From NCBI RefSeq assembly GCF_003334355.1, contig NZ_QOWP01000010.1: a stretch of 64,000 nucleotides of DNA. The stretch is one strand, 5' to 3'. Positions within the stretch are counted from its first letter, which is position 1. The number at the start of each line of letters is the position of its first letter. Origin of the DNA: Escherichia coli (GTDB lineage: Bacteria; Pseudomonadota; Gammaproteobacteria; Enterobacterales; Enterobacteriaceae). Below are positions 59,785 through 64,000 of this stretch, piece by piece. Made by a program: the position numbers and the translations under genes. The notes below the pieces were generated by a model. The model saw nothing but the letters and a program-made list of their open reading frames with translations, did not search any database and was not told the origin of the DNA.

Positions 59785-59818
59785 ATAAAAAAGAGCATTC
59801 AGTTACCTGAATGCTCTG
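59785..59818 (-). terminator. intrinsic terminator oriented for the minus strand (end of the etk/gfc transcript); may also stop appA read-through
   Basis: A6 on the plus strand followed by hairpin agagcattcag-ttacc-tgaatgctct; on the minus strand this is hairpin plus U6. Confidence 0.6.
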
Positions 59819-59845
59819 AGGCTGATGACAAACGAAGAACTGTCT

Positions 59846-59887
59846 AATGCGTAGACCGGAAAAGGCGTTCACGCCGCATCCGGCCAC
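59846..59887. repeat. REP element between appA and etk
   Basis: ggcgttcacgccgcatccggcc (reverse complement GGCCGGATGCGGCGTGAACGCC, REP consensus). Confidence 0.75.
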
Positions 59888-59895
59888 TTTCAGTT

Positions 59896-62076
59896 TTACT
59901 CTTTCTCGGAGTAACTATAACCGTAATAGTTATAGCCGTAACTGTAAGCGGTGCTGGCGCGTTTAATCACACCATTGAGGATAGCGCCTTTAATATTGAC
60001 GCCTGCCTGTTCCAGACGCTGCATTGACAAACTCACCTCTTTGGCGGTGTTCAAGCCAAAACGCGCAACCAGCAGGCTGGTGCCAACAGAACGCCCCACG
60101 ACCGCGGCATCACTCACCGCCAGCATCGGCGGCGTATCGACAATCACCAGATCGTAATGGTCGTTCGCCCATTCCAGTAATTGACGCATCCGATCGCGCA
60201 TCAGCAGTTCAGACGGGTTAGGTGGCACCTGACCGCGAGTAATCACATCAAAGCCTCCTTTGCCAAAATGCTGGATCACTTTGTTGAGCTCATCTTTACC
60301 TGCCAGATATTCCGACAAGCCATGTTCATTACTCACGGTAAACAGGTTATGCGAATAACCACGGCGTAAGTCGGCATCAATAAATAACACTTTTTGATCG
60401 GACTGGGCGATCACCGCTGCCAGAGTTGAACTGACAAACGTTTTACCACCGTCTGGCGTCGCACCGGTGATCATCAGAATGTTATTCTCCGTCTCCATCA
60501 TAGCGAAATGCAGACTGGTTCGTAGCGCACGTACGGCTTCCACAGCAGAATCCGCCGGGTTATCCGCCGCCAGGAAGGGGATATTTTTAGTACGATGGCG
60601 CTGCTGATTAGAAAATAAATTTTTCTTACGCAGACGGGTGCGTTTATCCAGCCACTCGGACATTGGGATAGTGGCATAAACGCTGATGCCGTGCTCTTCC
60701 AGTTGTTCCGGGGCTTCTACACCACGACGCAACATCGCACGCGCCAGCACGGCACCCACAGAAATAAACAGGCCAAGAATAAAACCAAGCACCACGTTCA
60801 ACGCTTTTTTCGGTTTCACTGGCTGCGGCTGAGTGACTGCCGGGTCGATAATCCGCACGTTACCAATGGCACTGGATTTCGAAATACTCAACTCCTGCTG
60901 GCGGTTAAGTAATTGCAGATATACCGCACGGCCCGCTTCTACGTCACGACTTAAACGCAACACTTCCTGTTGGGTGGAAGGCATTGCCGATACCCGCTTA
61001 TTCAGGCGTTTGCGTTCTTGCTCCAGCGTCTGGCGTTTTTCCAGCAGCGCACGATAAGTTGGGTGATCTTTCTTATACAGCTGGGAGATCTCTGCCTCGC
61101 GGAAGGTCAGCTCATTGAGTTGATTATCAACGTTCACAATCTGCTCAAGAACGGCTTTGGCTTCCAGGTTAAGGTCAACCGAATCGCGCTGCTGGCGATA
61201 AACGTTGAGTTTTTCTTCCGCTTGGTCCAGCTCGCTGCGCACTTCAGGTAACTGGCGCTGTAAGAATTCAAGGCTTTGTGAATCCTGCGCCGCCTGGCGA
61301 GCGATATTCTGTTGCAAATAGTTGTTAGCGATGCTGTTCAGAATACGAGTAATCAACTGGGGATCATCACCAGTCATGGTAAGTTCCAGCATCCCGCTTT
61401 CTTTACTGCGTTCGCTAACGGTAAAGGTTTCCTGCAATGCGTTAATCGCTTCCAGTTCGGTACGCTGGCTCAGGACAAACTGTGTTCCTGGTTTGGCCTT
61501 AATGTCCGCGATAGTCAGCGCAACGCCATCTTTTTCCAGACGCTGGCCGACCATACCATTGACGGTGAACTCTTCACCTTCCAGTGTATAGTGGCCGTTT
61601 TCCCCAACCGTGAGTGTCAGTTGCTGATCCTGACCATTCAGTTGTGGAATATGCATCCAGCTGATCGCCAGCTCACCTGGTTTTTCTTTGGTTAATCTCG
61701 CCCAGCCGCGACCCACAATCGGAAAATACTTCTGCTCAACTATGTCGCGCAGATTCAGTTCAGCAATGGTTTTACCGAGAATCATGCGCGATTGCAGCAG
61801 TTGGATCTCCGGTGCAGACTCGGGCGATGAGTTAGGGATCATATCGCTCAGGCCGCTGAGAATGGCGTTGCCCTGTTTTTGCTCAACCTGGACCAGAGTA
61901 TCTGCCTGATAAATTGGTGTGCTTAACAGCGAGTAAGCGACAGCGATCAGCGTGAATAACGCGGTCACGCTGATAATAAACTTACGGTGATCCCATAACT
62001 CGCCGACCAGACGAAGCAGATCGATCTCATTTTCCTGAGTGCTGCCTGGTGGCGTATTCATATTTTTAGTTGTCAT
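59896..62076 (-). CDS. etk: BY-kinase (protein-tyrosine kinase / polysaccharide co-polymerase) Etk (YccC)
   Basis: ORF 726 aa; Wzc-like layout with N-terminal transmembrane/periplasmic domain, Walker A-containing kinase domain and C-terminal Tyr cluster (…YSYGYNYYGYSYSEKE). Confidence 0.95.
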   Translation of the reverse strand: MTTKNMNTPPGSTQENEIDLLRLVGELWDHRKFIISVTALFTLIAVAYSLLSTPIYQADTLVQVEQKQGNAILSGLSDMIPNSSPESAPEIQLLQSRMILGKTIAELNLRDIVEQKYFPIVGRGWARLTKEKPGELAISWMHIPQLNGQDQQLTLTVGENGHYTLEGEEFTVNGMVGQRLEKDGVALTIADIKAKPGTQFVLSQRTELEAINALQETFTVSERSKESGMLELTMTGDDPQLITRILNSIANNYLQQNIARQAAQDSQSLEFLQRQLPEVRSELDQAEEKLNVYRQQRDSVDLNLEAKAVLEQIVNVDNQLNELTFREAEISQLYKKDHPTYRALLEKRQTLEQERKRLNKRVSAMPSTQQEVLRLSRDVEAGRAVYLQLLNRQQELSISKSSAIGNVRIIDPAVTQPQPVKPKKALNVVLGFILGLFISVGAVLARAMLRRGVEAPEQLEEHGISVYATIPMSEWLDKRTRLRKKNLFSNQQRHRTKNIPFLAADNPADSAVEAVRALRTSLHFAMMETENNILMITGATPDGGKTFVSSTLAAVIAQSDQKVLFIDADLRRGYSHNLFTVSNEHGLSEYLAGKDELNKVIQHFGKGGFDVITRGQVPPNPSELLMRDRMRQLLEWANDHYDLVIVDTPPMLAVSDAAVVGRSVGTSLLVARFGLNTAKEVSLSMQRLEQAGVNIKGAILNGVIKRASTAYSYGYNYYGYSYSEKE

Positions 62077-62095
62077 CGTATTTTATAAACTCAAA

Positions 62096-62542
62096 TTACC
62101 GGCTGAGGCGCTTCGCCCATTCCTGACTGGCGCGCTCCAACATACCGTAGACATGTTCAAATGCGTCCTGACTTTTACGATAGGGATCCGGGATCTCTTT
62201 CTGTTCCAGCCATTGCCCAAACAGCATTGTCTTCCCGCGGACCTCGGGAGCAATTGCGGTAACCTGAGCAATATGTTCCGACTCCATTGCCAGAATCAGA
62301 TCGTAATTTCGTGCCATCTCAGCAGTGAGCTTACGTCCGGCATGTCCTTCAAGAGATACGCCATGATTAGCGGCAACATCTGCCGCTGTCGCATCTGCAG
62401 GGTGTTTTACCAGACCATGAACACCTGCCGATTTGACTTTTACGCCCGGCAGACGTTTACGCAGCAAGCGCTCGCCAATGGGCGAACGGCAAATGTTGCC
62501 GGTACAAACCACCAGGATTGAGTTAAATTTTAGTTGGGCCAT
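62096..62542 (-). CDS. etp: low-molecular-weight protein-tyrosine phosphatase Etp (YccY)
   Basis: ORF 62096..62554; recognised start [28 protein letters not shown] (CX5R P-loop) at ATG 62542. Confidence 0.93.
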
Positions 62543-63669
62543 GTTTGAATCCACCGTGAAGTCTCTGTCAGGTCATGCACCCCGGAAATCGTCGGTACCA
62601 GCAGAGAAATCACACGGTTCCAACGAGCCAGCGGCGCGGTAGTGACATAAACAATGTCGTAAGGTTCAAGCTGGAATTCCGTTCCGAGTATCATTGCCGA
62701 TGCGTCCTTCGCATTCAGCTGATAAATATTGGCGATTTTGCCATTCTGCTTGTTTTGCGTTGCACGAATAACAAAAATCCCCGTCGCATCAGCGACATCC
62801 TGATTCATACCCTCAGCGTTACCCAGCGCTTCCGCCAGGGTCATACCGCTGCGGTCCATTTTCAGCGTGCTCTGTTTACCCACTTCACCCATCACGAAGA
62901 CTTTCAGATCATCGTTGCGCGGAATAAATAAAATATCGCCCGGGTGCAGCAGTTTGTTCTGGCGCAAGTCGCCACGCTGCATCAGCGCATAGAGGTTCAC
63001 TTTGGTCTTTACGCCATTCTGGGTGAGCACCACGTTGCGCCAGTCTGCATCTGCGGTCAGACCGCCCGCGGCGTTAATCGCATCCATGATGGTCAGAGGA
63101 ATATTGGTAATCGGCTGCTGACCCGATTTGCTGACTTCGCCGGTGACGTACGCTTTTTGCGATCGGAACGCCGCGACGCTGACATCGACTTGCGGGCTTT
63201 CAATGACTGAATCGAGACGCGCTGTAATCTCGTTGCGTACCTGGGTAAGTGTTTTCCCGGCCACTTTCAGGCGACCAATATAGGGGTAGAAAATCGCACC
63301 ATCGGCGTTAACCCAGTTGCCGGTATCACTGGCGCTACGGTATTGCCCTGCGGGGGTGGTTAGTTCCGGGTGATCCCAGACCGTAACCATCAACACATCA
63401 CCAATCCCGATACGATATTCATAGTTTGCGATTTGCTGCTCCAGCTCCGGGTTAGCCTGCGACATAATCGGTTTGGCGCGCAACTGATCAATCAATCCTG
63501 GCGTGACGGGATAGATATTGACCATTTTGTCCAGGTCATACTGATTGTCAGGTAGTTCAATGACATCCTTGTTACTGGTCGATAAATTCTGACCAGGAAC
63601 AAGGGTACATGCTGTCAAAGACAGAACAGCCAATGTCAGTACCGAAAACTTAAAAATGTTCTTTTTCAT
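62530..63669 (-). CDS. gfcE: Wza-like polysaccharide export outer membrane lipoprotein GfcE (YccZ)
   Basis: ORF 62530..63690; recognised start [23 protein letters not shown] (lipobox); 3' end overlaps the etp start. Confidence 0.92.
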
Positions 63670-63714
63670 TGGTTTATATTTATCAGTCAATGTAATGTTA
63701 TGAATTACGTCAGG

Positions 63715-64000
63715 TTATTGTCCAACCGGTACTTCTCGCTCTGCCGTCATTGGATAGAGCTGGTATTTGCGTGACAGCATTTGTCCACCATCACGCGTCA
63801 ATGGTGTCCACGAAACCACCGCGCGGTTGCGGTTAGGTCCAATGGTCATCAAGTCGAATGGAATCGAGATATAAAAACCTTTACTAAAGCCGCCTTCGCC
63901 GTAGTCATCTTTAGATACGTTACTGATTGCCGCCCATATCCCTACCGCCACGCCGCTGTCAAAGCGTTTGGCGACGTCGATCGTTGCGCCTTTATCTTTT
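63715..64000 (-). CDS. gfcD: GfcD (YmcA) outer membrane protein, C-terminal portion only; gene continues past the window end
   Basis: minus-strand frame open from 63715 to the window edge; C-terminal translation …[35 protein letters not shown]; position upstream of gfcE. Confidence 0.8.

Follow-up and report, generated by a model that had tools for sequence, protein, structure and literature searches.

The final part of the 64,000-nucleotide stretch of Escherichia coli DNA analyzed here (contig NZ_QOWP01000010.1, referred to as the window) is, with near certainty, the 3′ half of the canonical E. coli group 4 capsule (G4C) operon gfcABCDE-etp-etk, at its usual chromosomal site and convergent with appA. 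In the open reading frame (ORF) listing for positions 57000–64000, a plus-strand run of appC, appB, and appA stops at 59781 and is followed by four head-to-tail frames on the minus strand in the order gfcD′-gfcE-etp-etk, where the prime denotes the truncated gene, with the plus-strand appA adjoining the etk end (Table 1). A preliminary description of this DNA had proposed the distal part of a group-4-capsule-like module cut by the window edge; this proposal is borne out, and the curated protein models, Pfam domains, solved structures, and neighboring genes agree on it. At the level of sequence, the locus is the canonical gfc operon beside appA and more than merely "G4C-like." It is the characterized system itself, not a relative of it, and contains nothing new.

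About half of the ~8.2-kb operon by length lies in the window, but this includes only a small piece of gfcD. No frameshift or stop codon was found in the 4.1 kb of operon sequence within the window, and no evidence contradicting the identification of the operon was found in this analysis. Base composition gives no signal of recent horizontal transfer, the GC content of the operon (0.50–0.52) being like that of its flanks, and the repeats found in the region are short matches at chance level only.

Table 1. Features of the in-window part of the gfc operon and of the region downstream of etk
Feature	Coordinates	Strand	Description
gfcD 3′ end	63715–64000	−	Last 94 codons and stop, cut by the window edge; YjbH match
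gfcE	62530–63669	−	379 aa, Wza-type outer-membrane polysaccharide export (OPX) lipoprotein
etp	62096–62542	−	148 aa, low-molecular-weight phosphotyrosine phosphatase (LMW-PTP); annotated ATG start
etk	59896–62076	−	726 aa, inner-membrane BY-kinase (PCP-2a), last gene of the operon; ORF and curated model
REP-type (repetitive extragenic palindromic) element	59851–59887	−	Between the etk stop and the terminator-like hairpin
Intrinsic-terminator-like hairpin and T-run	59787–59817	−	Stem 59792–59817, T-run 59787–59791, downstream of etk

Encoded Proteins and Related Systems

The proteins encoded by the module score as members of the Etk, Etp, GfcE, and YjbH families and not as the colanic acid paralogues Wzc and Wzb, and their catalytic and structural motifs are complete. 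Etk passes the Etk equivalog model NF007350 (1591 bits versus a cut-off of 1248) but falls below the cut-off of the Wzc equivalog NF008568 (999.2 bits versus 1068). Its Pfam architecture is Wzz, WZC_N, GNVR, and AAA_31, and its top structural relatives in the Protein Data Bank (PDB) are 3cio, the Etk kinase domain (E = 2.5e-179), and 7nhr, full-length Wzc. Hydrophobic segments near residues 32–53 and 424–450 give the protein the PCP-2a layout of two transmembrane segments, a large periplasmic domain, and a cytoplasmic P-loop kinase. The kinase motifs comprise Walker A, ATPDGGKT (Lys545), Walker A′, VLFIDAD, and Walker B, DLVIVDTPP, together with Tyr574 and Arg614. The C-terminal tyrosine cluster, AYSYGYNYYGYSYSEKE, has seven tyrosines in the last 16 residues (positions 711, 713, 715, 717, 718, 720, and 722), and the model, domain, and structural matches together with this cluster agree with the earlier description of the gene product as a Wzc-like BY-kinase with tyrosines at its C terminus.

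The same pattern is observed for Etp, which passes NF008486 (333.7 bits versus a cut-off of 247) but lies below the Wzb equivalog cut-off (NF007520, 197.6 bits versus 243). The etp frame is open over 62096–62554 and covers 62096–62542 from the annotated ATG. The nearest solved structures are those of the LMW-PTP Wzb (2wmy, 2wja, and 2fek), and the features of this class are present: the CX5R(S) phosphate-binding loop, CTGNICRS, at residues 13–20 and the general-acid DPY motif at residues 119–121, which includes Tyr121. The prior assignment of a low-molecular-weight tyrosine phosphatase therefore holds, with the Etp model passed and the Wzb cut-off missed. GfcE, whose open frame spans 62530–63690 (62530–63669 from the annotated ATG), matches NF011658 at 703 bits, contains the Pfam domains Poly_export, two copies of SLBB_2, and Wza_C, aligns with the Wza structure 2j58 (E = 9e-191), and has a lipobox, LTAC, with the cysteine at position 21, in line with the Wza-like outer-membrane exporter described previously. 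The portion of gfcD within the window encodes ~13% of a 698-aa protein and matches positions 572–657 of the 658 positions of the Pfam family YjbH (PF06082; E = 1.5e-38). Its 94 codons are in frame, with no frameshift or stop codon among them, and the gene at 63715–64000 is annotated as gfcD in all relatives examined.

The nearest known system is the gfcABCDE-etp-etk operon of E. coli K-12 and enteropathogenic E. coli (formerly ymcDCBA-yccZ-yccY-yccC), which has the same genes, order, strand, overlaps, and flanking appA, and is 99.9% identical in nucleotide sequence. The wza-wzb-wzc genes of the colanic acid and group 1 (K30) capsule clusters encode the same core of an OPX octamer channel, an LMW-PTP, and a PCP-2a BY-kinase with the same domain architectures, but they are paralogues, not orthologues, of gfcE-etp-etk. 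They precede glycosyltransferase, wzx, and wzy genes, whereas gfcE-etp-etk are preceded by gfcABCD and lie at another chromosomal site. It is nevertheless from these paralogues that the one competing identification of the three genes derives, namely that they are themselves wza-wzb-wzc of a colanic acid or group 1 capsule cluster: GfcE, Etp, and Etk are closely related to Wza, Wzb, and Wzc, the Wzc and Wzb models match strongly (999 and 198 bits), and the best full-length solved structures are those of Wzc and Wza. We consider this identification extremely improbable, and it was rejected on the curated cut-offs and the genomic context. Both the Wzc and Wzb equivalog cut-offs are missed while the Etk and Etp models are passed, the upstream gene is the YjbH-family gfcD and not a cps gene, the flanking gene is appA and not the yegH-his region of the colanic acid locus (locus position from PMC6128206), and nucleotide identity to annotated etk-etp-gfcE is 99.9–100%. 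A further relative, the exopolysaccharide operon yjbEFGH, is homologous to gfcABCD (PMC8592465), and its YjbH is in the same Pfam family as GfcD. It has no adjacent genes of the wza, wzb, or wzc type (PMC8592465), whereas here gfcD is followed directly by gfcE-etp-etk.

For the gfc operon itself, the published work indicates that gfcABCDE-etp-etk is required for the O-antigen (group 4) capsule (PMC8592465; PMC3366997), that phosphorylation cycling by Etk and Etp is required for formation of this capsule (PMC3366997), and that GfcD is an outer-membrane β-barrel of the YjbH family that binds the GfcB-GfcC heterodimer (PMC8592465). In the mechanism established in the literature, the O-antigen repeat-unit polymer is made by the Wzx/Wzy pathway and handed from Etk, the inner-membrane co-polymerase and tyrosine autokinase, to GfcE, the Wza-type channel in the outer membrane. 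Etk autophosphorylates its C-terminal tyrosine cluster, and Etp strips the phosphates. GfcD, with GfcB and GfcC, acts in a poorly defined step that is specific to group 4.

Distribution of the Operon and Its State beyond the Window Edge

Positions 59700–64000 were used as a megablast query against 5,426 complete E. coli genomes, 5,416 of which contain a match; the match is full length in 3,712. The best identity is 99.95% (two mismatches), and that to K-12 MG1655 is 99.9%. Annotation in the full-length matches is uniformly appA, etk, etp, gfcE, gfcD, and the ORF coordinates in the window agree with RefSeq gene models in relatives at 99.9–100% identity. The closest complete genome, that of PSS-12, is collinear over the whole 64-kb window with 20 single-nucleotide polymorphisms (SNPs) and no insertions or deletions, and no complete E. 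coli genome identical to the window was found. K-12 is likewise collinear with the whole window (99.7% identity, three 1-nt gaps). On the collinearity with these two strains, the window reads as ordinary E. coli chromosome extending from ldtD to gfcD.

Approximately 31% of the complete genomes match just the first 73 nucleotides of the query, which correspond to the tail of appA, and the operon is absent from them. Strain UM146, for example, is without the whole of gfcABCDE-etp-etk: the 8,278 bp between the 3′ end of appA and the cspH stop are replaced by ~7 nt, as a result of which appA is extended to 1311 nt and overlaps cspH by 13 nt. G4C genes have been reported to be rare in phylogroup B2 (8%) and common in intestinal pathotypes (PMC8281228).

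In the window, Etp and GfcE are identical to the K-12 proteins, and the GfcD fragment is identical to that of PSS-12 and has one V to I substitution relative to K-12. Etk is identical to PSS-12 Etk and differs from K-12 Etk by V504A and S543G (codon 504, 60565–60567; codon 543, 60448–60450). Among the strains examined, Ala504 is shared with PSS-12 only. Residue 543, Gly here and Ser in K-12, directly precedes Gly544-Lys545 of Walker A; an exact 71-mer with the Gly543 codon is present in 170 complete genomes and its Ser version in 3,187. In the K30 Wzc structure the equivalent position is occupied by Ala, so the site appears to tolerate small residues, and no loss of Etk function would be expected from Gly543.

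The preliminary description cautioned that the state of the operon upstream of the window edge could not be read from the window, and it mentioned that promoter disruption is reported in K-12. Near-identical genomes justify this caution since intact, IS1-disrupted, IS5-disrupted, and IS3-disrupted states (IS, insertion sequence) are all found among them, and the IS1 upstream of gfcA is indeed present in K-12. Every relative examined has gfcA, gfcB, and gfcC, whether or not an IS disrupts the region. Among the five closest genomes in the comparison, two groups can be distinguished. (i) MLI023K1 and PRO_A-1412 have seven intact genes and no IS between cspH and gfcA. (ii) In the other three, the operon is disrupted by lesions that differ from strain to strain: K-12 has the IS1, 17MR471 has an IS5-family element (IS5/ISKpn26) upstream of gfcA and a frameshifted gfcD, and PSS-12 has an IS3 inside gfcA and the nonsense mutation W119* in gfcE. 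According to published work, the K-12 operon is silenced in LB medium by the IS1 in its promoter region (PMC2516531; PMC6128206). A nonsense mutation in etk, L487*, is present in the more distant strain AF39, and further top megablast matches carry IS3 or IS1 within the etk-gfcE stretch. The upstream IS3 of PSS-12 cannot be transferred to the window strain because the window does not have the gfcE nonsense mutation of PSS-12.

These observations bear on an alternative in which a lesion just past the window edge, either an IS in or upstream of gfcA or a mutation in gfcA-D, leaves the operon silent or nonfunctional despite its intact in-window genes, so that the region would be a decaying remnant. 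We put the probability of this alternative somewhat short of even. The different lesions in three of the five closest genomes, the etk nonsense mutation in AF39, and the reported silencing by IS1 in K-12 argue for it, whereas the operon is intact and free of an upstream IS in the equally close MLI023K1 and PRO_A-1412, the window is without the PSS-12 mutation in gfcE, and the in-window operon sequence has no frameshift or stop. Whether the window strain makes an O-antigen capsule hinges on the ~4.5 kb past the window edge, where near-identical strains differ.

Several points qualify the reading of this copy as an operon with its usual transcription and function, although none contradicts its identification. 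The window does not extend to the promoter, to gfcABC, or to 86% of gfcD, and the O-antigen cluster, the source of the polymer, is also not in it. Inactivating lesions of independent origin occur in close relatives, which bears on expression and capsule production here. Etk carries the minority Gly543 allele in its Walker A loop. Finally, the stem of the hairpin downstream of etk, which is described below, is invariant in the six strains compared, so its conservation says nothing for or against the structure.

The IS1, IS5, and IS3 insertions and the separate nonsense and frameshift mutations in genomes only a few SNPs apart also raise the idea that a phylogroup-A-like lineage is repeatedly and independently losing G4C function. 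We regard this as unlikely. If true, such recurrent loss would suggest that in commensal strains the O-antigen capsule is selected against or is under relaxed selection, and it would be of modest interest. Gly543 of Etk could be a part of such relaxation, or it could alter kinase activity. Apart from this, the importance of the locus beyond its correct annotation as the gfc operon is small; the capsule exporter of intestinal E. coli is characterized, and both the K-12 IS1 and the uneven spread among phylogroups are published.

Transcription Unit and the Region Downstream of etk

The gfcE and etp frames overlap by exactly 13 nt (62530–62542, with the annotated etp ATG), the overlap given in the preliminary description, and the gaps between gfcD and gfcE and between etp and etk are 45 and 19 nt, respectively. 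A consensus scan of the module found three promoter-like sites versus 4.7 expected by chance and no convincing internal promoter. Apart from the hairpin downstream of etk, the terminator-like matches are weak 5–7-bp stems within coding sequence, and none is a convincing internal terminator. A single transcript fits the overlap, the short gaps, and this lack of convincing internal promoter or terminator signals, and we infer that gfcD-gfcE-etp-etk are co-transcribed from the minus strand as one unit. The transcript would start at a promoter upstream of gfcA, outside the window, and would probably end at the hairpin and T-run at 59787–59817. In the published operon, gfcABCD are on the same mRNA as gfcE-etp-etk and the seven genes form one operon (PMC8592465).

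In a different arrangement, a cryptic promoter inside the operon would additionally give etk, with or without etp, a transcript of its own, regardless of how the gfc promoter fares. The case for it comes from K-12, in which phenotypes that depend on etk are reported even though the IS1 is present; a cryptic promoter and expression driven by the IS1 are the two explanations that the authors offer (PMC2516531). Under this arrangement, Etk would serve roles unrelated to the capsule, for example phosphorylation of Ugd leading to polymyxin resistance. This arrangement seems improbable here: the minus-strand sites in the consensus scan are confined to 63724–63695 (in the gfcD-gfcE gap) and 63551–63524 (inside gfcE), with none directly ahead of etp or etk, the promoter-like sites are altogether fewer than expected by chance, and the 13-nt overlap and 19-nt gap leave little room for an etp or etk promoter.

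The hairpin that would end the single transcript had been placed at 59793–59817 and is present at that site with a slightly longer stem, running from 59817 to 59792. It consists of 11 pairs, five of them G-C, and a 4-nt loop, and is followed by TTTTT (tail, TTTTTATGCA). Of the terminator-like sites in the region it ranks first, and it has the sequence features of a Rho-independent terminator. For the 119-nt etk 3′ region, the computed folding energy is −43.7 kcal/mol (z = −4.2 versus shuffled sequences), and the hairpin forms in both the minimum free energy and the centroid folds. Its distance from the etk stop is 78 nt, with the REP element in between, and that from the appA stop is 10 nt. 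Across six strains with other differences in the spacer, the loop has one substitution and the stem none, and because of this invariance no covariation support for the hairpin is possible. Termination of the etk transcript is predicted to occur at this hairpin. On the plus strand, an A-run precedes the hairpin, and the scan found no better terminator past appA on that strand; the sole plus-strand candidate, at 59755–59772, falls inside the appA coding sequence. Since the hairpin is so close to the appA stop, has the plus-strand A-run, and is without a better competitor for appA, it may be a shared, bidirectional terminator for the etk and appA units.

The candidate within appA is a 6-bp G+C-rich hairpin with a T-rich tail on the plus strand, in the last appA codons (the appA stop is at 59779–59781). 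The homology of the operon-less genomes to the query ends at query position 73, equivalent to window position 59772, inside this hairpin stretch.

The REP-type palindrome between the etk stop and the terminator-like hairpin folds as a separate hairpin and contains an exact GCCGGATGCGGCG at 59872–59884 on the minus strand. This motif is over-represented in the window (13 matches versus 3.1 expected). The palindrome matches the REP-derived Rfam family naRNA4 below threshold (25.6 bits versus a gathering score of 59.5). A second REP-like element is present in the cbdX-appA spacer at 58412–58481; it matches naRNA4 on the minus strand, again below threshold, and contains GCCTGATGCGGCG at 58413–58425. 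No Rfam family reaches its gathering score in 58000–64000, where the sub-threshold naRNA4 matches are the only ones. Over the whole window, gathering-level matches are found outside the module to the PyrD leader (22566–22639, plus strand), tRNA-Ser (49494–49578, minus strand), and the ES036 (CssrF) small RNA (2262–2304, plus strand), all of which are expected in a K-12-like region.

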